Positions 4,962 to 24,593 of a stretch of DNA of 64,000 nucleotides are shown here, piece after piece. Every line of letters begins with the position of its first letter. Position 1 is the stretch's first letter. The DNA comes from an uncultured Prevotellaceae bacterium (GTDB lineage Bacteria; Bacteroidota; Bacteroidia; Bacteroidales; Bacteroidaceae). Under the pieces are notes generated by a model, which was given only the letters and a program-made list of their open reading frames with translations, was not told the DNA's origin and did no database searches. Both the position numbers and the translations under genes were made by a program. The stretch covers positions 68,146-132,145 of the forward strand of contig CACYQD010000014.1 of NCBI GenBank assembly GCA_902776475.1, read 5' to 3'.

Positions 4962-7385
4962 ATGAAGCAAAAAGCATTATTACTGATGAGTCTCACTTTG
5001 CTGGTGCTTTCAGCAAGTGCTGGCAAAAAACCGACCGTCCCAGTTCCTATTCAGGAGGTGTCCTTCGCTCAGGTGCACCTGAATGATGGTTTTTGGTCGC
5101 CGCGCATCGAAATCAACCGCACGGTGTCCATCCCTTCTGCCTTTCATGAGTGCGAGGTGAATGGGCGCTTCGACAATTTCGCGTTGGCCGCCGGACTCAT
5201 CCAAGGTGAGCATAAAGGGGATTTCTCTTTTGACGACACCGACCCCTACAAGGTCATTGAGGGTGCGTCGTATTCCCTGGCAGTACACTATGACGCCAGG
5301 CTCGACCATTATCTCGACTCTGTCATCAACATCATCGCCCAGGCGCAGGAGCCGGATGGATACCTGACCACCTGCGTCACGAATAAGTGTACGCGCCTGA
5401 GCGGATGGTGGGGCACCCATAAGTGGGAGAAAATCAACTCTCACGAACTCTACAATTCCGGCCACCTCATTGAGAGTGCTGTGGCCCACTATCGTGCCAC
5501 GGGCAAGAAAACCTTCCTCAATGTCGCCATCAAGAATGCCGACCTTGTCTGCAAGACCTTCGGTCCCAACGAGGGACAGATCCATCGTCCGGGCGGCCAC
5601 CCCATCATCGAGATGGCGCTCTGCAAGTTGTACAAGGTGACGGGCAACAAGAAGTACCTCGACGGAGCCAAGTATTTCGTGGAGGAGACAGGACGCTGCA
5701 CTGACGGCCATCATCCCAGTGAATACTCACAGGACCACATGCCCATCCTGCAGCAAGAGGAGATTGTGGGGCACGCCGTCCGGGCGGGCTATCTCTACAG
5801 CGGTGTGGCTGATGTGGCTGCACTGACTGGCGACAAGGCTTATTTCGAGGCTTTGGAGCGTATCTGGGAGAACATGTCGTCCAAGAAACTCTTCATCACA
5901 GGCGGCATCGGCAGTCGTCCGCAGGGCGAGGGCTTCGGTCCCAACTACGAGTTGAACAATCACACCGCTTATTGCGAGACCTGTGCCGCCATCGCCAATG
6001 TCTATTGGAACTACCGCATGTTTCTGGCCACAGGTCAGAGCAAATATATCGATGTCTGTGAGCGTGCCTTATACAACAATGTCTTGAGTGGCGTCAGCCT
6101 TTCCGGCGATAAGTTCTTCTATGACAACCCATTGGAGAGCGACGGCGAGCACGAGCGCCAGAGGTGGTTCGGATGCGCCTGCTGTCCTGGTAACATCACC
6201 CGTTTTGTGGCCTCCGTACCCGGTTATATCTATGCCCAGCAAGGCAAGGATATCTTCGTGAACCTCTATGCACAGGGAAAGGCCAAGATAGGCAACATCG
6301 AGTTGGAGCAGACCACCGACTATCCATGGAACGGCAAGATCCGCATCCAGGTGACGAAAGGCAACGGCAAGTTCGCCATCAAACTCCGCATCCCTTCCTG
6401 GTTGAAGGATTCTCCGACCAACAACTCACTCTATACATATCATGAAGCCGCCTCTGCCTACACCGTCATGGTGAATGGTGTGGCAGCAGGCCCGGCGGAT
6501 GAAAACGGCTATGTCAGCATCACCCGCTCCTGGAAGAAGGGCGACGCCATCGAACTCGACTTCCCGATGAACATCCGCCGCATCGTAGCCAATGACAATG
6601 CTGAGGACGACCGCGGCAAGGTGGCCTTGGAGCGCGGACCTGTCGTGTTCTGCCTCGAAGGCAAGGACCAGGCCGACCATCAGGTCTTTAACAAGTACAT
6701 TCTCAACAGCGCTCCCATCACTGCCCACTACGAGCAGAACCTCCTCAACGGTGTGATGGTGCTCGAAGGCAATGCCAAGGAACTACAGCAGGATGGTGAA
6801 GTCAAGGATGTGAAATTCCGCGCCATCCCATATTCCACATGGAATAACCGTGGCAATGAGCAGATGGAGGTCTGGGTGGCCAACACGCCCGCCAAGGCCG
6901 TAGCCACACCACTTCCAACGATAGCCTCGAAGGCTCAGACCTTCTGCAACCGTGGTCCGATACAGAATGACGCCCCAGAGACCGCTCCTGTTGACTCCTG
7001 GGCCGGCGGCACCAACGACCAGTGGGAGCCCAAGCGCTCCTCCGACACCTCGAAGCCCTACCACTACTGGTGGTTGAAACGGGGCTCCACCGAGGCCATC
7101 ACCTACCAATTTGACCAGGAATACGAGGTGAGCAACGTACAGGTGTATTGGCTCGACTTCGACCACTACGACGGCAACTTCCGCACCCCCGAATCGTGGA
7201 AGCTCTATTACAAGGATGCCCAGGGCGAGTGGCACGAGGTGGCCGACCACAGCCCCTACACGGTCAGCAAAGACTGCTACAACAGTGTCAGTTTCGCCCC
7301 GGTGAAGACCACAGGCCTGAAAATTCTCGCCAAACTCCGTAAGGGCGAGTCGGGTGGTGTCCTCGAGTGGAAAGTAAACAAATGA
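4962..7385 (+). CDS. Glycoside hydrolase family 127 (beta-L-arabinofuranosidase-like) with C-terminal F5/8-like beta-sandwich
   Basis: Signal peptide; HELYNSGHLIE, GHAVRAGYLY, YCETCAAI, ALYNNVL, CACCPGN, VALERGPVVFC motifs. Confidence 0.92.
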   Translation: MKQKALLLMSLTLLVLSASAGKKPTVPVPIQEVSFAQVHLNDGFWSPRIEINRTVSIPSAFHECEVNGRFDNFALAAGLIQGEHKGDFSFDDTDPYKVIEGASYSLAVHYDARLDHYLDSVINIIAQAQEPDGYLTTCVTNKCTRLSGWWGTHKWEKINSHELYNSGHLIESAVAHYRATGKKTFLNVAIKNADLVCKTFGPNEGQIHRPGGHPIIEMALCKLYKVTGNKKYLDGAKYFVEETGRCTDGHHPSEYSQDHMPILQQEEIVGHAVRAGYLYSGVADVAALTGDKAYFEALERIWENMSSKKLFITGGIGSRPQGEGFGPNYELNNHTAYCETCAAIANVYWNYRMFLATGQSKYIDVCERALYNNVLSGVSLSGDKFFYDNPLESDGEHERQRWFGCACCPGNITRFVASVPGYIYAQQGKDIFVNLYAQGKAKIGNIELEQTTDYPWNGKIRIQVTKGNGKFAIKLRIPSWLKDSPTNNSLYTYHEAASAYTVMVNGVAAGPADENGYVSITRSWKKGDAIELDFPMNIRRIVANDNAEDDRGKVALERGPVVFCLEGKDQADHQVFNKYILNSAPITAHYEQNLLNGVMVLEGNAKELQQDGEVKDVKFRAIPYSTWNNRGNEQMEVWVANTPAKAVATPLPTIASKAQTFCNRGPIQNDAPETAPVDSWAGGTNDQWEPKRSSDTSKPYHYWWLKRGSTEAITYQFDQEYEVSNVQVYWLDFDHYDGNFRTPESWKLYYKDAQGEWHEVADHSPYTVSKDCYNSVSFAPVKTTGLKILAKLRKGESGGVLEWKVNK

Positions 7386-7394
7386 CAGGTCACC

Positions 7395-7605
7395 CGCCAG
7401 CCATCCTACAAAATCCAAAAAGCCCTGAGTGATTTGAAAGTAAACTTTCATCACTCAGGACTCTTTGTCTTTCGTGATCCCGTTGGGATTAGATATCCCA
7501 GTAGGCTGGCGCCAGCCATCCTACAAAGTAAAAAGGAGCCTTAAATATCTGAAAGCGAGCTTTCATATTTAATTCTCCTTTTTCCTTCGTGATCCCGTTG
7601 GGATT
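7395..7605. repeat. 115-bp tandem unit containing a tRNA 3'-end duplicate (att-like) and a long hairpin
   Basis: cgccagccatcctacaaa at 7395 and 7510; ttcgtgatcccgttgggatt at 7471 and 7586; each unit has a hairpin centred on TGAAAG-N4-CTTTCA. Confidence 0.85.
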
Positions 7606-7663
7606 CAAACCCAAGACCTTCAGAACCGGAATCTGACGCTCTATTCAGCTAAGCTACAGCAAA
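7590..7663 (-). tRNA. tRNA-Arg(CCG) with a mismatched 5' acceptor strand (probable pseudogene or att remnant)
   Basis: Minus strand: D arm, anticodon arm TCAGA-TTCCGGT-TCTGA, T arm TTGGG-TTTGAAT-CCCAA, 3' CGGGATC-A; 5' strand TTTGCTG fails to pair at positions 1, 2 and 4. Confidence 0.75.
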
Positions 7664-7713
7664 TTTTAAGGTTAAAAAGATAGACAGTCCGATTTTTCCG
7701 GAGATGTAGGGTT

Positions 7714-8943
7714 TTAGAAGTTGATCCATCGGGTCAGGTCGGTCTTGTCCTTGAAGTCGGGGGCTTTGGCGACTCCTGCTGTAGAGACATCCTCTCCGAG
7801 CAGGAAACGCTGGATGAAGGCCTTCACCTCTGGATACTGGCTTTCGGGCAACATGCAGTGGGGATGACCACCCACGATGGAGTATCCCACGCGGTCGGCG
7901 ATGCCATATTGTTGCCATACCTTCATGGCGGCGTTGATAGAGACGTAGGCAGACTCGTCGGCCAACCATTTGTAATCGGTGTTGCCAAGTATCAACAGCG
8001 CGCGCGGACAGATCATGGCGCACAATTCATGATGGTCGTGGGGCAGACGGAAAGTCTTCTCCTGGGCGAAGTTGGTGCGCATGCTCTCCTTGAACCAGTG
8101 ATAGTCGGTGCGGTCGAGGCTCTCCACGCTGTCGATGGTGTTGGAGACACGCCAGGCTGCAGCTCCGCCGCCACCGGGCTCCTGTGCGATGGTGAGGGCG
8201 ACACGCTCGTCAAAGGCTCCGCAGAAAAGAGCCATCTTGCCGGCGTAGGAGCAACCGGTGACACCGATGTGGCGGGTGTCGATACGGGTGATGGCAGGCC
8301 CGAGCTGTTGCAGTCCGTCAATCAATCGGCTGAAGCCCCAGGCCCATTCGCTGTAGGCTCCGTTTTCTGTCAGGTCGGGATACAGCTGGTCGAAAGCGAA
8401 TTCTCCACGGTCGTGGGGATGCCGCCACTGAGAATAGTCGTTGACCTGTGCCTCATGGAAGGTCATGGTGGCGATGGGGAGGTCGGAAAACAGCTGGCGG
8501 GGCAGGGAAATGCCGCTCGAGCCAATCAATACGGCGTAGGGTGCCTTGCCCGTCGTGGGGTAGTGGATGGTGGACTTCAGGGTGAGGGACTTGCCGTTGC
8601 GGGTGACATCCACGATGAGGGTGTCGCCGTCCATCCGGGCTTTCACCGTGGCGTCCTTGATGGATGGTTTCGTGCCGATCTCATAGTGCTGGATCTCGGC
8701 CGCGATCTCATTGCGACGGCGCTCCCACTGCTTGAATTTGAGGGCGCGGCCACGGCCGTTGCTCCACTGCAAGGGGTCGGTGAGGGTGTTGATGACAGGC
8801 AGTTCGCTGGCCGGGGGCATGACGGGTGCGCTGAACTTGGCTCCGGTGTTCTCCTGGTCATAAACGAGCGGAATTTTTTTCTGGGCGTTCACCGTCAGAA
8901 GGGTGAGACCCAAGAAGAGGAAGGTGGTTAGCGTTTTTTTCAT
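7714..8943 (-). CDS. Carbohydrate esterase family 15 (glucuronoyl esterase-like)
   Basis: Signal peptide; WAWGFSRLIDGL, IGVTGCSYAGKMAL, FDERVALTIAQEPGGGG, LPHDHHEL motifs. Confidence 0.88.
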   Translation of the reverse strand: MKKTLTTFLFLGLTLLTVNAQKKIPLVYDQENTGAKFSAPVMPPASELPVINTLTDPLQWSNGRGRALKFKQWERRRNEIAAEIQHYEIGTKPSIKDATVKARMDGDTLIVDVTRNGKSLTLKSTIHYPTTGKAPYAVLIGSSGISLPRQLFSDLPIATMTFHEAQVNDYSQWRHPHDRGEFAFDQLYPDLTENGAYSEWAWGFSRLIDGLQQLGPAITRIDTRHIGVTGCSYAGKMALFCGAFDERVALTIAQEPGGGGAAAWRVSNTIDSVESLDRTDYHWFKESMRTNFAQEKTFRLPHDHHELCAMICPRALLILGNTDYKWLADESAYVSINAAMKVWQQYGIADRVGYSIVGGHPHCMLPESQYPEVKAFIQRFLLGEDVSTAGVAKAPDFKDKTDLTRWINF

Positions 8944-14710: not shown

Positions 14711-16264
14711 ATGTTCAAAAATCATCCTAAAGGATTGCTGCTTGCTGCATTAAGCAATATGGGAGAGCGGTTCGGATACTATATCATGAACGCCGTGCTC
14801 GCGCTCTTCCTGTGTTCGAAATTCGGCCTCTCCGATGGCCAGAGTGGTTTCATCGCCGCCATGTTCCTCACCGCCATCTATGTGCTCAGCCTCGTGGGTG
14901 GCATCATCGCCGACCGTACCCAGAACTACAAAGGCACGATCGCATGGGGCCTCGTGGTGATGGCATTGGGTTATATCCTCCTGGCTATTCCCATCCTGGC
15001 CACACCCGGCAACATCTCCTGGCTCCTGCCATTCACCATCTTCGCTCTTGCACTCATCGCTTGTGGAAACGGTCTGTTCAAAGGCAACCTGCAGGCCATC
15101 GTCGGTCAGATGTATGACAACTTCGAAGCCAGTGCCGCCAAACAGGGACCTGAGAAACTGAAGTGGGCTCAGGGACAGCGTGATGCCGGTTTCCAGATTT
15201 TCTACGTCTTCATCAATATCGGTGCCTTGGCAGCACCGTTCATCGCTCCATTGTTGCGGAGCTGGTGGCTGAAGGTGCATGGACTGGCTTATAATGCCGA
15301 CCTTCCCAAACTTTGCCATGAGTACATCGCTGGCAATATGGACACCAATAACATGCAGAACTTGACGGAATTGGTCCAGAAAGTGGGGGGCGACACCTCT
15401 GATTTGGCTGGCTTCTGCACGCACTATCTCGATATCTTCAATACGGGTATCCACTACTCGTTCATCGCTTCCGTGGTCACCATGTTGATCTCATTGGCCA
15501 TCTTCTTGCTGTCGAAGCATCTCTTCCCGACTCCGGGAAAGAAAGAGGCTGTTTCATCGGAGGGATACACCGAGGACGAGAAAAGGGCCATGGCCAAGGA
15601 AATCAAGCAGCGTATGTATGCGCTCTTCGCCGTGCTGGGCATCGCCGTCTTCTTCTGGTTCTCATTCCACCAGAACGGACAGTCGCTGTCGTTCTTCGCC
15701 CGCGACTTCGTGCAGACTGATTCCATCGCACCAGAGATTTGGCAGGCTGTCAACCCGTTCTTCGTCATTGTCCTCACTCCGGTCATCATGTGGTTCTTCG
15801 CCACGCTCACAGCTCGTGGAAAGGCCATCTCCACACCGCGTAAGATCGCATACGGTATGGGTATCGCCGGATTGGCTTACCTCTTCCTCGCTCTCTACTC
15901 GGCTTCACAGAGCTATCCTTCGGCTGAGACATTCACAGCCCTGTCCGACTCGGCAAAGGCTGGTCTGAAAGCCGGTCCTTGGGTGCTCATCGTCACCTAT
16001 TTCTTCCTGACTGTGGCCGAATTGTTCATCTCACCGCTGGGACTTTCGTTCGTGTCGAAGGTGGCACCCAAGAACTTGCAGGGTCTCTGCCAGGGATTGT
16101 GGCTGGGAGCTACAGCCGTGGGCAACGGCCTGCTGTGGATTGGTCCGCTGATGTATAACAAGTGGCCGATCTGGGTGTGCTGGGTCGTGTTCCTCATCAT
16201 CTGCCTCATCTCCATGGGTGTGATGTTCGGCATGGTGAAGTGGTTGGAAAGAGTAACCAAGTAA
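14711..16264 (+). CDS. Proton-dependent oligopeptide transporter (POT/PTR family MFS)
   Basis: NMGERFGYY (ExxERFxYY-like), GNGLFKGN, FYVFINIGAL, ELFISPLGLS motifs. Confidence 0.92.
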   Translation: MFKNHPKGLLLAALSNMGERFGYYIMNAVLALFLCSKFGLSDGQSGFIAAMFLTAIYVLSLVGGIIADRTQNYKGTIAWGLVVMALGYILLAIPILATPGNISWLLPFTIFALALIACGNGLFKGNLQAIVGQMYDNFEASAAKQGPEKLKWAQGQRDAGFQIFYVFINIGALAAPFIAPLLRSWWLKVHGLAYNADLPKLCHEYIAGNMDTNNMQNLTELVQKVGGDTSDLAGFCTHYLDIFNTGIHYSFIASVVTMLISLAIFLLSKHLFPTPGKKEAVSSEGYTEDEKRAMAKEIKQRMYALFAVLGIAVFFWFSFHQNGQSLSFFARDFVQTDSIAPEIWQAVNPFFVIVLTPVIMWFFATLTARGKAISTPRKIAYGMGIAGLAYLFLALYSASQSYPSAETFTALSDSAKAGLKAGPWVLIVTYFFLTVAELFISPLGLSFVSKVAPKNLQGLCQGLWLGATAVGNGLLWIGPLMYNKWPIWVCWVVFLIICLISMGVMFGMVKWLERVTK

Positions 16265-16287
16265 AAAGTTCGGAGATTCAAAACCAA

Positions 16288-16386
16288 CCTCTCCCTTTGG
16301 GAGATCCAAAAGCAACCATCCCCTCTCCCTTTGGGAGAGGACGGGTGAGGGAAAAAAATAGAGACGTCACATTGTGGCGTCTCTAC
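16288..16386. repeat. Composite REP element: two CCTCTCCCTTTGGGAGA hairpins + GGnnnGGTGAGGG + GTAG-REP
   Basis: Read directly between the convergent POT and queC genes; same architecture at 62174-62444. Confidence 0.85.
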
Positions 16387-16409
16387 TGCGTTTCAGTGTA
16401 TTTCTGTTT

Positions 16410-17063
16410 TTATGAAATATAATCCGTGGGGTCTTCTATTCCGGCCTCTCGAAGTGCTTCCTTGCGCTCTAGACAGGTGCCGCAGCGGCCGCAGTGGCGC
16501 TCTCCTCCCTTGTAGCAGGAGTAGGTCTCGGCATAGTTGATGCCCAGACGTTTCCCGATCTTGGCGATGTCGGTCTTCGTGATGCCCGTGTAGGGTGCCA
16601 GGACCTCCACTCCGATGTAGGTGCCGGCACGCATGGCTTCCGACATGGGTTTGACAAACTCCGCCGTACAGTCGGGGTAGATGGAATGGTCACCGAAATG
16701 GTTGGCCATCATCACCTTGGTCAGGCCGCGGCTCTCTGCTATGCCGCAGGCTATGGAGAGCATGATGCCGTTGCGGAAAGGCACAACGGTCGATTTCATG
16801 TTGTCATCGGCATAGTCACCTTCAGGGATGGCATCAGCCCCCTCCAACAGCGATGACTTGAAATACTGGCTCATGAAGGAAAGGGGTATCACGAGATGTT
16901 CGATGCCCAACCGTTGGCAGTGAAGGGCGGCGAAGTGAGCTTCCCGCTTGTTGTGGTTGCTGCCGTAGTCAAAGGTGACGGCAAGGGCGATCCTGTCTTT
17001 ATGGTCATGCAACAGGGTGACGGAATCCATTCCGCCTGATAGGATGATGACAGCGTCTTTCAT
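16410..17063 (-). CDS. queC: 7-cyano-7-deazaguanine synthase
   Basis: LSGGMDS, FDYGSNH, VPFRNGIML, YPDC, TYSCY, HCGRCGTCLER. Confidence 0.96.
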   Translation of the reverse strand: MKDAVIILSGGMDSVTLLHDHKDRIALAVTFDYGSNHNKREAHFAALHCQRLGIEHLVIPLSFMSQYFKSSLLEGADAIPEGDYADDNMKSTVVPFRNGIMLSIACGIAESRGLTKVMMANHFGDHSIYPDCTAEFVKPMSEAMRAGTYIGVEVLAPYTGITKTDIAKIGKRLGINYAETYSCYKGGERHCGRCGTCLERKEALREAGIEDPTDYIS

Positions 17064-18457
17064 TGTTTTGTTTTTGTGGATTTGATATTGGCCTCATGCA
17101 GACCATAGCCTTTCTTGCGGTCGATGACCATCAGCAGCAGGGCGAAGAGGATGGCTCCAGCGCCGAGAGCGGTGAAGACCAGCATCGGGATGGTGTAATC
17201 GACATGGCCGTCGGAAGAGGTGTATTCACCGATGATGTTGCCTACGAACATCGGCACCAGCATCAGGCCGATGTTCTGAACGAAATAGATGATGCTGTAG
17301 GCCGTGCCCAACTGTTTGAGCGGTACGATCTTGGGTACACTGGGCCACATCGCGCTGGGTACCAGGGAGAACGAGACTCCGTAGAGGATCATCGTCAGTG
17401 AGGCAAACCAGGTGTGGTTGAGGATCGGGAGGGCCAGGAAAAGATGGCAGAGGGTGACCAGCACACAACCGATGAGCATCAGCGTCGAACCGCGCCCCAT
17501 ACGGTCGTAAATGATTCCGAAAAGGGGTGTGAGGACAATGGTGCCGTAGGGCAGGATGGAGGTGATCCAGCCGGCTGTCACAGGAGCAATGCCATATTTG
17601 TTGATGAGCAGGTCTGTGGCAAACTTCAGGAAGGGGCGCAGACTGGAGTAGAACATCACGCACAGGATGGCGATGAGCCAAAAACCAGGGTTGCGGAGCA
17701 CCTTGACGAAATCGCGGAACGAGAACTCCTCGTTCTCCGTGGCTGAAGAGGCCGTGTCCTTCACGGCCATCTTGTCGAAGCGCTTGTCCATGAAGATATA
17801 GACGATGAACATCACAAAACCCATCAGCAAAAGGGCTGCACCTACAAGAATCGGGGCCGACAGTCCGTAAGCGTTGGCGATGACCGGACTCATGCTGATG
17901 GCCGATGCGGTGCCCAGACGGGCCATGGCCACCTGAATGCCCATGGCAGAGGCCAGTTCGTGGCCTGTAAACCACTTGGTGACAACCTTGGACACGGTGA
18001 TGCCTGTGATGTCGCATCCCACGCCAAACAAGCCAAAACCGAGGGATGCCACCAGCACCTGTGTCTTGATGTGACTGGGGATGAGACCGAAGAGGGTGAA
18101 GGGAAGGTCAACGTAGGAGAAGGGCCAGATGACGGTCACTGCCAGGTAGTTGATCGCCGCTCCGCTGAGCATCATGCCGGTGGCAAGGATGCCTGTGAAG
18201 CGGATGCCGCATTTGTCGAGGATGATGCCGCCCCAGAAGAGCATCAACAGGAAGATGTTGAAGATGCTGTAGCTGCCGGCATAGAAGCCATATTCAGCGG
18301 CGGTCCATCCCATGCCACCGGATTTTACCGAGGCCTTGAGGGTGGTGGAAAGTGGCGAAACGATGTCCCAGAACACATACCCCATCATCATGACAAAGGC
18401 CACGATGAAGAGCACGGTCCAGCGGCGTGTGCGTGAGTTGTTGGAGACGGTTTGCAT
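17060..18457 (-). CDS. MFS transporter, MFSD1-like paralogue 2 (start probably MQTVSN at 18457)
   Basis: About 12 hydrophobic helices; GYVFWD, GGIILDKCGIR, FGVGCD..KWFTGHEL..MARLG, MWPSV, VQNIG; stop overlaps the queC start (ATGA). Confidence 0.88.
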   Translation of the reverse strand: MQTVSNNSRTRRWTVLFIVAFVMMMGYVFWDIVSPLSTTLKASVKSGGMGWTAAEYGFYAGSYSIFNIFLLMLFWGGIILDKCGIRFTGILATGMMLSGAAINYLAVTVIWPFSYVDLPFTLFGLIPSHIKTQVLVASLGFGLFGVGCDITGITVSKVVTKWFTGHELASAMGIQVAMARLGTASAISMSPVIANAYGLSAPILVGAALLLMGFVMFIVYIFMDKRFDKMAVKDTASSATENEEFSFRDFVKVLRNPGFWLIAILCVMFYSSLRPFLKFATDLLINKYGIAPVTAGWITSILPYGTIVLTPLFGIIYDRMGRGSTLMLIGCVLVTLCHLFLALPILNHTWFASLTMILYGVSFSLVPSAMWPSVPKIVPLKQLGTAYSIIYFVQNIGLMLVPMFVGNIIGEYTSSDGHVDYTIPMLVFTALGAGAILFALLLMVIDRKKGYGLHEANIKSTKTKQ

Positions 18458-18467
18458 CAATAAAAAT

Positions 18468-18501
18468 TGGGTGCGTCCCTCCATAGGCGGTGACGCACCC
18501 A
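18468..18501. repeat. Intercistronic hairpin tgggtgcgtc...gacgcaccca
   Basis: 10-bp perfect inverted repeat between the two MFS genes. Confidence 0.6.
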
Positions 18502-18517
18502 TTGTATTTGAGGTGGG

Positions 18518-20173
18518 TTATTTAATGTTGGGCTCTTCGAGTCCAAGACCTTTCTTCTTATCCACCACCTTCAGCAGGAGACCCAGCACGAGGGCAGCCA
18601 CGCCGAGGCAGGCAAGCATCACAAGGGGTGCGGTGTAGTCATAGCTCACGGCAGCCTGTTCGGCGGTGATGCTGCCATTGGCAAGTCCGTTGACGATGTC
18701 GGGGTTGGTCTTGTCGAGCACCTTGCCGATCAACAGCGGGAACAGCCACAGTCCGATGTTCTGAATCCAGAAAATCAAAGCGTAGGCCGAACCGATGATC
18801 TTGGGTTCCACCAGTTTGGGAACGCTTGGCCACAGTGAAGCCGGAACCAGAGAGAACGAGGCTCCCAGCACGAGGATGGTGATGTATGCCACGGCCACGC
18901 CACCAATGGCGTTGCCCTTGAAGGCCGGCAGCACGAAGGCGAAGGTGAGGTGGCAGGCGATGAGGAGCAGCGAACCGAGGACCAGCATCGAGGCCGCCTT
19001 ACCCTTGTTGTCGACATAGCTTCCCAGGATGGGAGTGATGAGCACAGCCAGCAAGGGGAACACGGCAAAGATCGACTCTGCCGACTGGCGCATGTAACCC
19101 ATGTAGCAATAGGTGATGAGGGCTATGATGGACAGTCCGAGAAGACTGTATTTCTTGCCGGGGGCTTTCTGGAAGTTGCTGGCGAAACCAGCGGCAGCCA
19201 CCACGAGCATGATGATATACTGGACGATGGTCACCGATGAGTTTGCCCAGAATGAATCAGCGTCCGGCGGGGTGAGCGTGAGGTTGCACTGCAGCATGTT
19301 GACCGCATATTTCTGGAAGGGGAAAATGGCGGAGTAATAGAGCACACAGAGCAGGGCCACAAGCCAGAAGCCGCTGCTGGTGAGGATCTTGCCGATGTCG
19401 CTCACCTTGAACGGGTCATCCTTCTCCTCAGCCTCGCCGGTTTGTGCGTCGAGCTTGCTGTCCATGAAGAAATAGACAATAAACATGATGAGGGCAATGC
19501 ACATGAGCACTACACCGAAGGCTACTGAACGGGTGACACTCACCTGGCCGCCCAAACGGGCAAAGAACGGTGAGAAAATCATACAGGTGGCCACACCCAG
19601 ACGGGCCAGGGCCATTTCGGAACCCATTGCCAGAGCCATCTCACGGCCCTTGAACCATTTCACGATACCACGGCTCACGGTGATACCGGCCATCTCGCAG
19701 CCGCAACCGAAAATCATGAATCCGCAGGCGGCAAACTTAGCGGATGCCGGCATGCCCTCATAGAAGGGAGATACGCCCAGGTCATCGAAGACGGGGATGT
19801 AATTCAGGTGATTGGTGAACCACTGTTCGAGGCCGCTGCCCATGAACGCCTCGCTCACGGCATACCATTTGATGATGGCGCCGATAAGCATGACTGCACC
19901 TGAGAGAACAGCGGTGAAGCGTACACCCATCTTGTCGAGGATGATACCTGCGAAGATGAGGAAGAACACGAAGACGTTGAGAAACACCTCTGAGCCTTGC
20001 ATGGTGCCGAAGGCGGTGGAATCCCATCCGCGCTCACTGAGCATCAAGTCCTTGATCGGTGAAAGGATGTCCATGAAGATGTAAGAACAGAACATGGCCA
20101 GGGCCAGCAGGAGAAGTGCCGTCCATCTCATGGCGGCTGAGTCTCTCAATGTTTTTTTGATTGTCTCTGTCAT
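18518..20173 (-). CDS. MFS transporter, MFSD1-like paralogue 1
   Basis: SYIFMD, AGIILDKMGVR, FGCGCE..KWFKGREMALAMGSEMALARLG, LWPSV, IQNIG. Confidence 0.9.
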   Translation of the reverse strand: MTETIKKTLRDSAAMRWTALLLLALAMFCSYIFMDILSPIKDLMLSERGWDSTAFGTMQGSEVFLNVFVFFLIFAGIILDKMGVRFTAVLSGAVMLIGAIIKWYAVSEAFMGSGLEQWFTNHLNYIPVFDDLGVSPFYEGMPASAKFAACGFMIFGCGCEMAGITVSRGIVKWFKGREMALAMGSEMALARLGVATCMIFSPFFARLGGQVSVTRSVAFGVVLMCIALIMFIVYFFMDSKLDAQTGEAEEKDDPFKVSDIGKILTSSGFWLVALLCVLYYSAIFPFQKYAVNMLQCNLTLTPPDADSFWANSSVTIVQYIIMLVVAAAGFASNFQKAPGKKYSLLGLSIIALITYCYMGYMRQSAESIFAVFPLLAVLITPILGSYVDNKGKAASMLVLGSLLLIACHLTFAFVLPAFKGNAIGGVAVAYITILVLGASFSLVPASLWPSVPKLVEPKIIGSAYALIFWIQNIGLWLFPLLIGKVLDKTNPDIVNGLANGSITAEQAAVSYDYTAPLVMLACLGVAALVLGLLLKVVDKKKGLGLEEPNIK

Positions 20174-20215
20174 TGTATTTTTTGATTGATGTTTTTTTTG
20201 AGGGTGGGGCTGGGG

Positions 20216-20382
20216 CTAGTGGCTCTAGGGTTTCTAGTGGTCCTAGGGTTTCTAGTGGTCCTAGGGTTTCTAGTGGCTCTAGGGTTTCTAGTGGTGCTAG
20301 GGTTTCTAGTGGTCCTAGGGTTTCTAGTGATCCTAGGGTTTCTAGTGATTCTAGGGTTTCTAGTGCCTCTAGTGATCCTAGG
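20216..20382. repeat. CTAG-phased tandem repeat (18-bp unit of two 9-mers, about 9 units, 19 CTAG)
   Basis: ctagtggtc-ctagggttt repeated between the S9 peptidase stop and the MFS start. Confidence 0.95.
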
Positions 20383-20385
20383 TTG

Positions 20386-22566
20386 TTATTTCAGCCAGCG
20401 GTTGAGCCAGTTGAAGTAGGTGCGCTGCCATAAGACGCCGTTCTGGGGCTTCAGCACCCAGTGGTTCTCATCAGGGAAGATGAGCAGCTGCGCCTCTATG
20501 CCTTTCATGCGGGCGGCATTGAAAGCACTCATGCCCTGCGTGGCATTGATGCGGTAGTCCTTCTCACCGTGGATGCACAGGATGGGGGTATCCCACTGGT
20601 CGATGAAACGGTGGGGAGAATTCTCATAGGTCTTGCGGGCGTTGGCCGTCTGGTCTTTGTTCCAATAGGCATCGTCATATTCCCAGTTGGAGAACCAGTT
20701 CTCCTCGGTCTCGGTGTACATGGCCTCGAGATTGAAGGCTCCGTCGTGGGCGATGAAGCACTTGAAACGCTTGTCATGATGGCCGGCAAGATAATAGACG
20801 CTGAAACCACCGAAACTGGCACCCACGGCACCCAGACGGTCTTTGTCCACGTAGGGCAGGTTGGCAGCAGCGTCGTCGATGGCAGTGAGGTAGTCGCTCA
20901 TGCACTGACCGGTCCAGTCGCCGCTGATCTCCTCACACCACTCACTGCCGAAACCGGGCAGTCCATGGCGGTTGGGAGCGATTATGACGTAGCCGTTGGA
21001 GGCCATGATCATAAAGTTCCAGCGGTAGCTCCAGAACTGAGATACCGGACTTTGCGGACCACCCTCGCAGAAGAGTAGGGTGGGGTATTTCTTGTTGGCA
21101 TCGAAGTGAGGTGGCAAGATGACCCAATAGAGCATGTCCTTGCCATCTGTGCTCTTGACCCAACGCTTTTCGACCGTGGGTTTGGCCAGCTGGTCGAGGA
21201 TGTGCTTGTTCTCGTAGGTAAGCTGTTTGACCGTCACCTTCTTGGCATTCTTTGAGTTGGGCGTGATGATATAGAGGTCGGCTGGCGACGTATAGTTGTG
21301 GCGCTCGGCCACGATGCGCTTGCCGTCGCCTAACATTTGCAGCGAACCGAAGTCGGCCCAGTGGCAGTCGGACGTGGCGGTTTCTATCTGGCGCAGTTCA
21401 CCTTTCTGAGAGATGGAGTAAAGGTTGTAGGTGCCATGCCATACGCCAGTGAAGTAAATCATGGCGTCTTTGGTGTCAGACCAGCAGAAAGCATCGACAT
21501 CTGAGTCGAAACTCTCGGTGAGATAACGCTTTTCGCCAGTGGCCAACTCATAGACACACAGGCGGTTGCGGTCGGCTTCATAGCCGTCGCGCGCCATGCT
21601 CTGCCAGGCGATGTATTTGCCGTCGGGCGAGAACTGTGGGTTCTGGTCGTAGCCGGGATTGTTTTTCAGATTGTCAGCAGCGTTGACTTTTTGGTTGCGC
21701 AATGTCTTGGTGGCATCCACCTCAGGATCCTTGTATCCAGCAGGCTTGCAAAGGTTGCGGGTGGTCTTTTTCTCCACGTCATACAGATAGATGTCGGAAT
21801 CGGTGGAGATAGAGTAGGCGAGACCGGTCTTCTTGCGGCAGGTGTAGGCAATCTGCTTGGAGTCCATGCTCCAGTCAAGCTGTTCGATGCCGCCAAAAGG
21901 TTCCATCGGACATTCGTAAGGTTCCCCTTTGAGGATGTCGGTGCCTTTGCCGATCTCCCCTGCGGTCACGTTGGCCACAAAAGGATGCTGGATGCTCTCC
22001 ACATAGTGGTCCCAGTGACGGTACATCAGGTCGGTCACCAGACGGCCTGTGGCTTTGGGCAGGTCGGAGGGGTTCTCCTGGATGATATCATGGAAGGGGA
22101 TGGACTGCAGGAGGATTACGCGGCTGCCGTCGGGAGAGAACTTGAACCCTTCCACGGCCCCGTCGGTATGGCTCATTTGCTTGCGGTTGCCGCCGTTGCT
22201 GTCCATGCTCCACACCTCACCGCCTTTGAGGAAGACGATGCGGTCGCCCAGCCATGCCGGGTCGGTCTCATTGTCTGCATCCTGGGTGAGCAGCTGCTGT
22301 CCGGAACCATCGCTGTGGATGAGGTAGAGCACCTGGTGGCTCTTGTTCTCCTTCACACTGTAATAGCCTACCTGATAGACGATTTCATCGCCTCCGGTGC
22401 GGGGTGCATAGCTGCCGATGCGGCCCATGGCCCAGAGTCCCTCTGGGGTGAGCAGGTCGCTCTGCAGTGTGATGTCGCTTTTGCCTATGTTCACTTTCTG
22501 TTGTGCTTCCATTGGCATCCCAACCATCAGGGAGAGGGCTGCCGCCATGATCAATGATTTGTGCAT
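20386..22566 (-). CDS. S9 family (S9C, DPP5-like) secreted dipeptidyl peptidase
   Basis: Signal peptide; beta-propeller with PD40-like repeats; EGGPQS, GASFGG (Ser), HGEKDYR (Asp), DENHW (His). Confidence 0.9.
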   Translation of the reverse strand: MHKSLIMAAALSLMVGMPMEAQQKVNIGKSDITLQSDLLTPEGLWAMGRIGSYAPRTGGDEIVYQVGYYSVKENKSHQVLYLIHSDGSGQQLLTQDADNETDPAWLGDRIVFLKGGEVWSMDSNGGNRKQMSHTDGAVEGFKFSPDGSRVILLQSIPFHDIIQENPSDLPKATGRLVTDLMYRHWDHYVESIQHPFVANVTAGEIGKGTDILKGEPYECPMEPFGGIEQLDWSMDSKQIAYTCRKKTGLAYSISTDSDIYLYDVEKKTTRNLCKPAGYKDPEVDATKTLRNQKVNAADNLKNNPGYDQNPQFSPDGKYIAWQSMARDGYEADRNRLCVYELATGEKRYLTESFDSDVDAFCWSDTKDAMIYFTGVWHGTYNLYSISQKGELRQIETATSDCHWADFGSLQMLGDGKRIVAERHNYTSPADLYIITPNSKNAKKVTVKQLTYENKHILDQLAKPTVEKRWVKSTDGKDMLYWVILPPHFDANKKYPTLLFCEGGPQSPVSQFWSYRWNFMIMASNGYVIIAPNRHGLPGFGSEWCEEISGDWTGQCMSDYLTAIDDAAANLPYVDKDRLGAVGASFGGFSVYYLAGHHDKRFKCFIAHDGAFNLEAMYTETEENWFSNWEYDDAYWNKDQTANARKTYENSPHRFIDQWDTPILCIHGEKDYRINATQGMSAFNAARMKGIEAQLLIFPDENHWVLKPQNGVLWQRTYFNWLNRWLK

Positions 22567-22572
22567 AGTATG

Positions 22573-24483
22573 TCAGTTTCGGTTGTTGAGGTCACGTTTC
22601 TTGCGGTTCAGGTCCTCACGCTTGCGCTGCATCTCCAACTGTTGTTTCTGCATGGCTTCCAGACGTGCGGCCAGTCCGCCGGTCTTTTTCTTGGGGTTGT
22701 TCTTGTTCTCGCGGTAGCGGGCCTCAAGGATGGCCAGCAATTTGGCATCGTTGGTGGTCTTGCGCAGGGTGAACATGATGGCTGCGCTGAAGAACAGCGA
22801 GACAAAGTAGTAGAAGTTGAGTCCTGCGGAGTAGTCGTTGAAGATGAAGAAGAACATCACGGGCATGAGATACATCATCCACTGCATCATCTTCATCTGT
22901 TCGGCTTGCTGTCCCACCATCTGGTCGCGCTGCTGGCGCATGGTCATGATCGAGTAGAGAATGTTGGCCACGCAGAAGAGGATACAGGTGAGTGACAGGT
23001 GATCGCCGATGGCCCAATAGCTCTTGCCCCATTCAATGATGGGGTCGTAGGTCGAGAGGTCTTTGATCCAGAGGAAACTCTCGCCGCGGAGTTGGATGGC
23101 ATTGGGCACAAAGTTGAACATCGCGATCCAGATAGGCATCTGGATGAGCATCGGCAGGCACCCGCTGAGCGGGCTGACACCATAGTCAGCATACATCTTC
23201 ATCTGAGCCTGTTGCTTGAGCATCTGGTCCTCAGGCTTGTCATATTGCTTGGTGGCTTCCTCCAGTTTGGGTCTGAGCACGCGCATCTTGGCCGAACTCA
23301 TGTAACTCTTCTTGACAAGAGGATAGGTGATGGCCTTGAGCAGGAGAGTGATGAGGATCAGCACGATACCCATGTTGATGCCCCATTTGGTCAACCAGTC
23401 GAAGACATAAAGGGTGAAGAAGCGGTTGATGTAGCGGATCAGAGGCCATCCGAGATAGACCAGACTCTCCATGTCGAGGTCCTTGCCGAATTTGCTCTCT
23501 TTCTCAACAGCCTTCAGCAGGTTGAAGTCGTTGGGACCATAGAAGAACTCCAGTTCCGTCGGGGTCTCTCCCTTGGGATCGAAGAAAGTCTCCAGTTCTG
23601 CATCATATTTCTTCAGGTATCCTGTCGATTTGTCCTGGGGAATGCTGCTCAGTACGGCATTGGCGGAGAAATCCGTCTTGGCAATCATCATCGCGCAGAA
23701 GAACTGGCACTTGAAGGCCACCCAGTCGAGCGGCTCTTCGATTTTCTGGTCAGTCTTCTCCGACGTCTCGCTCAGATGGTCGGTGCCCGATCCCTTCTCT
23801 TTATAGGTGAGGGAGGCGTAGCGGTTTTCGAAGGAGTGGCCTTTCTCCTGCTGCTTGCAGTTCTCATGCCAGCTGACATTCATTGTGTGGGTCTTGGTAG
23901 AGAAGAGGCCTTCCATACCCACAGCGCGGAAAGAGAAGTGGGTAAGATAGTCATTGCCAAGCAGATAGGACATCTCGATGCGACGGCCGTTGCCAGCATC
24001 GGCGGTGAAGGTCACAGTGCTGTCGGTCTGCTCGGAGGGTGTGAAATAAAGGTCGGAGACAGCGATGTTGTTCTCCTTGCCTTCGAGTTTGAAGTCCAAC
24101 TGGTGGTCCTTGCCCTCAAACAAGGTGACATCTGGTTTGCCGTCCAGGGATTTGTAGTTTTTCACGACAGCCTTGGTCACCACGCCGCCCTTGGTGCTCA
24201 GCGTGAGTTCCACCTTGTCGTTGCGGAGCACGACATCACTGGCCGTGCCGTTGAGAGCCTCATGGAAGAGCGCTGTACTGTCCTCGCGGGCCTGGGCGAG
24301 GGCAGCGGTCTTCTTGGCCTCGGCCACTTTCTTCTGTTCAGCGGCTTTCTTCCGCTCGGCTTCCTGTTTTTCCACTTGCTCCTGTTGGGCCTTGATCTCT
24401 TCCTCAGAAGGACGGGTCCACCAACTGAAACCTATCAGTACGACGGCTATCAGAACGAAGCCGATGATCGTATTTTTATCCAT
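22573..24483 (-). CDS. yidC: Membrane protein insertase YidC
   Basis: MDKNTIIGFVLI start, periplasmic domain, SGCLPMLIQMPIWIAMF, LWIKDLS.YD, GLNFYY. Confidence 0.96.
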   Translation of the reverse strand: MDKNTIIGFVLIAVVLIGFSWWTRPSEEEIKAQQEQVEKQEAERKKAAEQKKVAEAKKTAALAQAREDSTALFHEALNGTASDVVLRNDKVELTLSTKGGVVTKAVVKNYKSLDGKPDVTLFEGKDHQLDFKLEGKENNIAVSDLYFTPSEQTDSTVTFTADAGNGRRIEMSYLLGNDYLTHFSFRAVGMEGLFSTKTHTMNVSWHENCKQQEKGHSFENRYASLTYKEKGSGTDHLSETSEKTDQKIEEPLDWVAFKCQFFCAMMIAKTDFSANAVLSSIPQDKSTGYLKKYDAELETFFDPKGETPTELEFFYGPNDFNLLKAVEKESKFGKDLDMESLVYLGWPLIRYINRFFTLYVFDWLTKWGINMGIVLILITLLLKAITYPLVKKSYMSSAKMRVLRPKLEEATKQYDKPEDQMLKQQAQMKMYADYGVSPLSGCLPMLIQMPIWIAMFNFVPNAIQLRGESFLWIKDLSTYDPIIEWGKSYWAIGDHLSLTCILFCVANILYSIMTMRQQRDQMVGQQAEQMKMMQWMMYLMPVMFFFIFNDYSAGLNFYYFVSLFFSAAIMFTLRKTTNDAKLLAILEARYRENKNNPKKKTGGLAARLEAMQKQQLEMQRKREDLNRKKRDLNNRN

Positions 24484-24521: not shown

Positions 24522-24529
24522 CAAAATTA
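24522..24529 (-). promoter_or_regulatory. -7 box TAATTTTG for the yidC operon
   Basis: Exact match 38 nt upstream of yidC. Confidence 0.65.
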
Positions 24530-24593
24530 CACTTTTTTTACGAGATGGACAAAAAGTATGCCAAAAACATCTTGGTTTTCCCCGTTTTATATT

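Follow-up and report, generated by a model that had tools for sequence, protein, structure and literature searches.

Bacteroidales of the gut, the rumen and the oral cavity live largely on peptides, and their dipeptide uptake is now ascribed to POT, with OPT. In P. gingivalis, POT and OPT carriers are also under discussion as targets for drugs. Most dipeptide uptake of this species is generally attributed to POT, and a pot/opt double mutant shows hardly any growth. The published P. gingivalis model lists SstT, POT and OPT as the only amino-acid and peptide carriers. TCDB 2.A.1.53 is presumably the Pht family. Its characterized bacterial members are reported to carry amino acids and nucleosides, NgtA carries intact glutathione but not Cys-Gly, and Pht transporters are described as confined to intracellular pathogens. 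MFSD1 is filed in the same TCDB 2.A.1.53 (PMC9333335), and its published substrate site includes Y56, D60, E150, R181, Y276, W373, Q396, N397 and L400. The literature on MFSD1 combined with Bacteroidales names, together with a B. thetaiotaomicron fitness paper, yielded nothing on an MFSD1-like bacterial family. Here, we describe two such proteins encoded next to a dipeptidyl-peptidase. On balance, the best reading of yidC, DPP5, MFS-A and MFS-B, with queC possibly attached, is a peptide-harvesting unit with dipeptide import, which we propose with moderate confidence.

Organization of the locus

The window analyzed here is a 64-kb stretch of DNA from an uncultured Prevotellaceae bacterium, a Prevotella of the rumen. 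According to ORF calls, the minus strand carries yidC, DPP5, MFS-A, MFS-B and queC in this order, and the opposite strand carries a POT gene facing them. The ORFs were found at the window positions given in the initial annotation, and the family scores agree with its description of a POT gene opposed to the operon. The first gene encodes the membrane insertase YidC (22573..24483, minus strand; NF002356, 712.8 bits). The gap between yidC and DPP5 is 6 nt, and most Prevotellaceae loci retain the pairing. A sigma-70 promoter scan gave no more than background, and a Bacteroidetes-type motif (TTTG-N-TAnnTTTG) was therefore used instead. This pattern occurs 8 times in the window, compared with an expectation of 0.55. 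The match at 24522..24553 on the minus strand, which precedes the yidC start by 39 nt, is likely the operon promoter. The 212-nt spacer between DPP5 and MFS-A is taken up by an 18-bp tandem repeat of 8.3 copies (20216..20365; TRF score 244, 93% matches). An intrinsic terminator read from the sequence (AGAGACG...CGTCTCT followed by a T-run; 16352..16384, minus strand) closes the operon.

DPP5 (20386..22566, minus strand) scores 1020.9 bits with the NF053518 equivalog model (cut-off 900), and its S9 catalytic domain is recognized by PF00326 (Peptidase_S9, E 2e-51). The translation contains a signal peptide ending in AQQ and the serine motif GASFGG. By these scores and motifs, the operon's peptidase is a bona fide DPP5, in agreement with the secreted, dipeptide-releasing S9C peptidase first proposed for the locus. 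The peptide genes of the genome comprise S46, three DPP4-like genes, DPP5, OPT, one POT and three PepD-like genes. The POT gene (14711..16264, plus strand), a member of the di- and tripeptide:proton symporter family convergent to the operon, scores above the cut-offs of both PF00854 (E 9e-47) and TIGR00924 (178.7 bits), and a single tblastn hit indicates that it is unique in the genome. Its motif reads NMGERFGYY instead of ExxERFxYY, with the first Glu replaced by Asn, and most POTs adjoining MFSD1-like MFS genes carry the identical variant.

Homology to MFSD1 and the substrate site

MFS-A (18518..20173, minus strand) is a canonical permease of the MFSD1 family and MFS-B (17060..18502, minus strand) a derived paralogue with an altered pocket. 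In phmmer searches against all PDB sequences, MFSD1 (8r8q_A) was the sole match for both MFS-A (E 4e-15) and MFS-B (E 9e-27), which argues that the likeness in motifs is not due to chance. The HMM alignment suggested at the outset gave a specific match over the full length. A family profile (A1) matched 8r8q_A at E 3.8e-39, with profile positions 12-438 aligned to chain positions 40-437, followed by PepT_St (1e-4) and FLVCR1 (2e-4). The suspected likeness to MFSD1 hence reflects real homology. AF2 models of MFS-A (pLDDT 86.4) and MFS-B (pLDDT 85.1) show a 12-helix MFS fold. Foldseek searches of the PDB assigned a probability of 1.0 to many MFS structures and did not discriminate between MFSD1 and the remaining MFS folds. 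8r8q_A ranked third with the highest identity, about 22%, and a difference in conformational state reduced its TM-score. All homologues listed by a protein homologue search are from near Prevotella relatives and are annotated simply as MFS transporters. Both proteins matched MFS families only and not Vut_1 (PF02592), the family of YhhQ-type queuosine-precursor transporters.

The motifs quoted in the initial annotation (Y-x3-D, FG.G.(E/D)...ARLG, WP and QN(I/L)G) are all present in the translations. TM1 contains YVFWD or YIFMD in the two proteins, the second motif reads FGCGCE...KWFKGRE...ARLG in MFS-A and FGVGCD...KWFTGHE...ARLG in MFS-B, and WP and QNIG are found as well. The MFSD1 site was mapped onto the bacterial proteins by sequence alignment. 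Y56, E150, R181, Y276, W373, Q396 and N397 are conserved in 65/65 Bacteroidales homologues, and D60 (62/65), F280 (63/65) and L400 (64/65) are nearly so. The site residues are likewise conserved in distant classes of Bacteroidota. Alignment with the published site thus supports the claim that the named residues correspond to the substrate site of MFSD1. As judged from this alignment, the bacterial pair keeps a bipolar site, with an acidic residue in TM4 for the amino end of a peptide and an Arg in TM5 for the carboxyl end. The Tyr, Trp and Gln-Asn lining of the MFSD1 site is also kept in MFS-A and MFS-B.

A free amino acid, with its amino and carboxyl groups, would fit a charged pair of this kind too. 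The two permeases might then take up individual amino acids or a different small zwitterion, similar to the Pht transporters of Legionella and Francisella, with the DPP5 and PepD neighbors reflecting general amino-nitrogen metabolism. MFSD1 shares TCDB 2.A.1.53 with Pht carriers of amino acids, nucleosides and glutathione, and dipeptides are therefore only a putative substrate of the bacterial proteins. However, the entire MFSD1 pocket is kept, including the aromatic and Gln/Asn lining and not just the charged pair. The commonest tight gene partners, DPP5 and PepD, also specifically make or split dipeptides. We consider amino-acid import unlikely.

Divergence of the two paralogues

MFS-A contains all tested site residues, including E160, R191 and Phe at the position of F280. 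In its AF2 model, TM7 and TM8 are separated by two additional helices (residues 312-332 and 338-362). Translation of MFS-B probably starts at Met16. MFS-B keeps all tested site residues except E150, which is replaced by Asp, and F280 is in addition replaced by Arg. Overall, its pocket carries four linked changes, Y59W, E150D, F280R and F393Y, corresponding to W45, D164, R289 and Y406. This signature is retained in 55-56 of 60 orthologues. The MFS-B clade is monophyletic with a support of 1.0, and the paralogue occurs in Prevotella only. Tandem second copies in other lineages also differ at the F280 position, where they carry Y or S. The Glu/Asp difference had been taken as a hint of split specificity between the paralogues. 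The difference is real, but it is one of four coordinated pocket changes, and the Asp-containing paralogue is a derived offshoot rather than an equal half of a pair.

Distribution and gene neighborhoods

MFSD1-like genes were found in 177 of the 201 sampled Bacteroidales genomes. DPP5 is located directly upstream in 43/57 Prevotellaceae loci and in 34/79 named loci. The synteny comparison across Bacteroidales proposed in the initial annotation thus recovered the linkage to DPP5 among Prevotellaceae, but it is limited to the Prevotella-related lineage and does not extend to the order. Outside this lineage, the evenly sampled order set showed no DPP5 adjacency except in one genome (G119). We rejected order-wide synteny of DPP5 and MFS genes, as the two are unlinked in most families. 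In a different Prevotella, a DUF1846 housekeeping gene is inserted at this operon.

Other peptide-related genes recur next to the family. In an even sample of 60 Bacteroidales loci, 8-9 have PepD (TIGR01893, 605 bits) as a direct neighbor, and one of these is arranged as DPP5-PepD-MFS. POT is the next gene downstream on the same strand at 8/79 loci and belongs to a divergent block at 7/60 loci, and T9SS trypsin-like, C10 and S8 proteases adjoin the MFSD1-like gene elsewhere. Peptide-related genes account for 15% of the immediate neighbors versus at most 4% at a distance of four or more genes, an effect of distance that is inflated because neighbor annotation covered recurrent clusters only. 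Most neighborhoods consist of housekeeping genes such as PPDK, a tRNA methyltransferase, RelA-Fur-PurA and menaquinone genes. Scattered neighbors include M23 peptidase (4 loci), SpoIID, MurF and a beta-lactamase-family protein, and FolC is directly upstream in Parabacteroides distasonis and at one other locus. Such neighbors might point to substrates that derive from the cell wall or otherwise resemble peptides (murein peptides, folate, p-aminobenzoyl-glutamate), or to a role in export, with incidental links to peptidases. We find this quite improbable, since each of these neighbors occurs at just 1-4 loci, less often than DPP5, PepD, POT or secreted proteases, and none is conserved across lineages.

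The last gene of the operon, queC (7-cyano-7-deazaguanine synthase; 16410..17063, minus strand), matches TIGR00364 at 176 bits against a cut-off of 150, and its start shares an ATGA overlap with the MFS-B stop. This translational coupling raises the question of whether MFS-B imports a queuosine precursor such as 7-carboxy-7-deazaguanine or preQ0. The genome (93.6% complete) encodes QueC and QueF but neither QueD nor a clear QueE, so that a precursor might need to be imported, and the Arg gained in the MFS-B pocket also speaks for this reading. The linkage, however, follows the peptidase rather than queC. In only 10 of 57 loci with the MFS-B clade does queC follow MFS-B, against 43/57 loci for DPP5. 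Among five same-genus genomes, queC is never adjacent, being either separated by 40 kb to 890 kb or placed on a different contig, and two of these genomes apparently lack MFS-B yet have queC. QueC without QueD is also common in family members that possess only the canonical MFS, unlinked to queC. Furthermore, the genome encodes two YhhQ-type (Vut_1) genes elsewhere, on contigs C8 and C19, one of them beside queF. The DUF1846 insertion shows that another housekeeping gene has joined this operon. We regard queuosine-precursor import as highly improbable and reject it given that the linkage to queC is narrow and recent. We judge queC to be a recently attached housekeeping passenger.

Proposed role in dipeptide uptake

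DPP5 is exported to the periplasm, and enzymes of its family cut dipeptides from oligopeptides. Under the dipeptide reading that we favor, MFS-A and MFS-B, as MFSD1-related permeases of the inner membrane, would move these dipeptides from the periplasm to the cytoplasm. PepD-type dipeptidases, for which the genome contains three genes, could then split the imported dipeptides. Hydrolysis by PepD in the cytoplasm would keep the gradient downhill. MFS-A would act as the general carrier, whereas MFS-B, given its four pocket changes, would accept another subset of dipeptides, perhaps acidic ones. The adjoining POT would represent the classical proton-coupled route, based on its family membership.

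More tentatively, the family may constitute a near-universal and hitherto unrecognized MFSD1-type dipeptide import route in Bacteroidales and some other Bacteroidota, operating beside POT as the bacterial counterpart of the lysosomal exporter. Such a carrier might work as a facilitator independent of protons, with hydrolysis by cytosolic PepD as the driving force. In this broader and doubtful scenario, the Prevotella duplicate MFS-B could have been re-tuned, through the Glu to Asp and Phe to Arg changes together with Tyr to Trp and Phe to Tyr, for a different class of dipeptides, perhaps acidic ones. Given that the P. gingivalis pot/opt mutant scarcely grows, an MFSD1-like homologue in this species, if one exists, cannot sustain growth alone. 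If confirmed, a second widespread carrier family would change models of peptide uptake, including those of nitrogen loss in the rumen. A conserved MFS transporter without an assigned role, present in roughly 90% of the Bacteroidales genomes sampled, would thereby be explained, and a tractable bacterial system would become available to study the MFSD1 mechanism and the residues determining specificity.

Comparison with known systems

Among described systems, the periplasmic DPP system of P. gingivalis (DPP4, DPP5, DPP7 and DPP11 with POT/OPT) has the same enzyme set as this genome, but the model of that system contains no MFSD1-like carrier, unlike the operon described here. POT/PTR2 transporters (DtpA-D, PepT_St and the P. 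gingivalis POT) likewise have an MFS fold and carry di- and tripeptides. They are proton symporters though, and their ExxERFxYY motif and HA/HB helices are missing from the MFSD1-like proteins, whose family profile matches PepT_St at E 1e-4 only. Pht transporters (Legionella PhtA, PhtJ and PhtC/D, Francisella NgtA), set beside MFS-A and MFS-B here by description only, are likewise bacterial MFS proteins and importers, and NgtA imports the peptide glutathione. Their substrates, however, are amino acids, nucleosides or a tripeptide. MFSD1, the lysosomal dipeptide uniporter that functions with GLMP (PDB 8R8Q), shares full-length sequence similarity and the MFS fold with the bacterial proteins. 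It differs in its lysosomal rather than bacterial inner-membrane location, in Y365 and Q393, which are Phe in the bacterial family, and in the absence of the two extra helices that MFS-A has between TM7 and TM8. The genes adjoining MFS-A and MFS-B encode enzymes rather than a glycoprotein comparable to GLMP, the obligate accessory subunit of MFSD1. MFSD1 moves its substrates from the extracytoplasmic side to the cytosol, and this topological direction matches the one proposed for the bacterial carriers.

Homology to MFSD1 and distribution of the family

The tandem permeases MFS-A and MFS-B are homologous to MFSD1, the eukaryotic lysosomal dipeptide uniporter. MFSD1 (8r8q_A) was the sole match for either protein in a search of PDB sequences (E 9e-27 for MFS-B, 4e-15 for MFS-A). 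A profile of 37 family members matched MFSD1 over its full length (E 3.8e-39), with the next families, PepT_St and FLVCR1, at 1e-4 to 2e-4. The MFSD1 likeness proposed in the initial annotation thus reflects homology rather than chance, and every motif quoted there is found in the MFS-A and MFS-B translations. Specific homology, MFS fold and site residues all place both proteins in the MFSD1 family. MFSD1 has been termed phylogenetically unassigned in the MFSD1 papers, and the passages available from these papers use "bacterial" of POT-family transporters only. No description of the Bacteroidales family was found in the literature searched, and the public names of relatives are just "MFS transporter".

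Of 201 sampled Bacteroidales genomes, 177 carry a homologue (E 1e-20 or better), usually in a single copy. A phylum-wide sample showed homologues in Bacteroidales and several other classes, and none in the large Flavobacteriales-type families sampled. At E 1e-30 or better, 759 representative proteins were recovered among 1.84 billion, clustered at 50%. A Prevotella-type MFSD1-like gene was also seen on contigs labelled Eggerthellaceae, Agathobacter, Lachnospiraceae, Gemmiger or Akkermansia (loci L153, L157, L166, L186 and L205). These are "cleanbin" assemblies, yidC-DPP5 is also present on four of the five contigs, and the contigs are probably mis-binned.

Predicted operon structure and gene neighbourhoods

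In this rumen Prevotellaceae genome, five genes follow one another on the minus strand, from yidC (22573-24483) through DPP5 (20386-22566), MFS-A (18518-20173; 551 aa) and MFS-B (17060-18502; 480 aa) to queC (16410-17063), and the POT gene (14711-16264, plus strand) converges on this row. The window sequence has gaps of 6 nt between yidC and DPP5, 212 nt between DPP5 and MFS-A and 15 nt between MFS-A and MFS-B, an ATGA overlap at the MFS-B/queC junction, and a hairpin followed by a T-run directly 3' of queC. A pattern search placed a Bacteroidetes-type promoter motif directly 5' of yidC. Spacing, promoter motif and hairpin together point to one predicted operon. DPP5 is an equivalog-level family match (1020.9 bits, curated cut-off 900) and has a signal peptide. 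An 18-bp tandem repeat (20216-20365; unit CTAGTGGTCCTAGGGTTT, 8.3 copies, 93% matches) fills the DPP5/MFS-A spacer of the window. Relatives have spacers of ~45 to ~190 nt. A separate hairpin, TCTCCCAAAGGGAGA, lies in two copies at 16290-16345, between the queC terminator and the POT gene end. Residues 16-24 of the POT read NMGERFGYY, with Asn replacing the first Glu of ExxERFxYY. This Asn variant recurs in 19/19 MFS-adjoining POTs of the named loci and in 5/8 of the order sample.

In Prevotellaceae, linkage of the MFS genes goes with the peptidase and not with queC. DPP5 lies upstream in 43 of 57 loci (43 of the 52 with enough upstream sequence), whereas just 10 of the 57 have queC after MFS-B. 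Five genomes belonging to this GTDB genus have queC 40-890 kb from the MFS genes or on another contig. The proposed peptidase linkage thus stands within Prevotellaceae but not for Bacteroidales at large, since DPP5 and the MFS gene are mostly unlinked in the evenly sampled order set. Other peptide-related genes appear there instead: a PepD-type cytosolic dipeptidase (TIGR01893, 605 bits) adjoins the MFS gene in 8-9 of 60 loci, a DPP5-PepD-MFS arrangement occurs once, POT lies in a divergent block beside it in seven loci, and T9SS-secreted trypsin-like, C10 and S8 proteases lie next to it in ~13. Peptide-related families account for 15% of the genes directly beside the MFS gene, versus 4% or less at a distance of at least four genes, a contrast somewhat inflated because only recurrent clusters of neighbours were annotated. 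In a second sample of 79 named loci, 34 have DPP5 directly upstream (28 of these with one canonical MFS copy), eight have a co-directional POT as the next gene downstream, and 52 have DPP5, POT or PepD no more than three genes away. The neighbours also include many housekeeping genes, among them PPDK, a tRNA methyltransferase, RelA-Fur-PurA and menaquinone genes. FolC is a co-directional neighbour of the MFSD1-like gene in Parabacteroides distasonis, where it is upstream, and in one other Bacteroidales genome (L195:6634-7950, L098:8418-9755).

The queC overlap had raised the alternative that MFS-B carries a queuosine precursor. The genome (93.6% complete) lacks QueD and any clear QueE while encoding QueC, QueF and a pair of YhhQ-type genes (gene set at window 16410-17063, C8:45352-46329 and C19:31646-32125), as might be expected if a precursor were imported. 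However, relatives with an unlinked MFS gene commonly have QueC but no QueD, and two same-genus genomes have QueC with MFS-B apparently missing. Another Prevotella locus, L197, carries a DUF1846/PRK13663 gene (6480-7943, 802 bits) between both MFS genes. This insertion and queC at the MFS-B end point to an operon that acquires passenger genes. A precursor carrier is very improbable. QueC without QueD also recurs in many relatives at least 98% complete. The pattern may reflect salvage of an intermediate, for instance 7-carboxy-7-deazaguanine (CDG), or an unrecognised replacement of QueD/QueE. TIGR00364 scores of QueC in this GTDB family fall into two classes, ~245-270 bits in most genera and ~165-182 bits in five, and the window's queC (176 bits) belongs to the latter.

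Substrate site and divergence of the paralogues

According to the MFSD1 paper, the dipeptide density is lined by Y56, Y59, E150, Q176, R181, Y276, F280, Y365, W373, Q393, Q396, N397 and L400, the two peptide termini are clamped by E150 and R181, and D60 is critical. An even sample of 60 Bacteroidales genomes supplied 65 homologues, in which we mapped these positions by sequence alignment. Y56, E150, R181, Y276, W373, Q396 and N397 are present in all 65, D60 in 62, F280 in 63 and L400 in 64, whereas Y365 and Q393 are replaced by Phe. In the alignment, distant homologues from other Bacteroidota classes retain the same residue set, plus Y59. Bacterial members of the Pht family, which we take to be TCDB 2.A.1.53, transport amino acids, nucleosides or glutathione. 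MFSD1 is filed under 2.A.1.53 (PMC9333335), and amino-acid transport is therefore the main rival reading for MFS-A and MFS-B, although we consider it unlikely.

MFS-A has the canonical site residues. In its AF2 model (pLDDT 86.4), a pair of additional, confidently predicted helices (312-332 and 338-362) lies between TM7 and TM8, and this insertion at residues 312-362 brings the helix total to 14. Similar insertions are probable in many of the Bacteroidales homologues that are 540-700 aa long. MFS-B carries W45, D164, R289 and Y406 at the positions of Y59, E150, F280 and Q393, a signature present in 55-56 of 60 orthologues. They group in a single clade (FastTree support 1.0, stem length 0.52) confined to Prevotellaceae. 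The kept signature and the single clade mark MFS-B as a conserved, derived offshoot whose pocket has been re-modelled. The initially noted split, with E in MFS-A and D in MFS-B, is real but is only one of four changes in this offshoot. The F280 position also varies in second tandem copies of other lineages, to Y or S. The added Arg of MFS-B might favour acidic dipeptides.

Proposed function and comparison with known systems

The predicted operon beside the POT gene combines a periplasmic DPP5 with two inner-membrane MFSD1 homologues whose putative dipeptide site is intact. We somewhat favor dipeptide import by MFS-A and MFS-B. Dipeptides released by DPP5 and other DPPs would enter through both permeases, MFS-A might act as the general and MFS-B as the specialised carrier, and cytosolic PepD would keep up the gradient. 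Relative to MFSD1, the 14-helix form and the pocket-altered paralogue stand out as variant features. The genome encodes one POT, one OPT, one S46 peptidase, three DPP4-like peptidases, one DPP5 and three PepD-like enzymes. This set matches a dipeptide economy of the P. gingivalis type, in which the recognised carriers are SstT, POT and OPT only.
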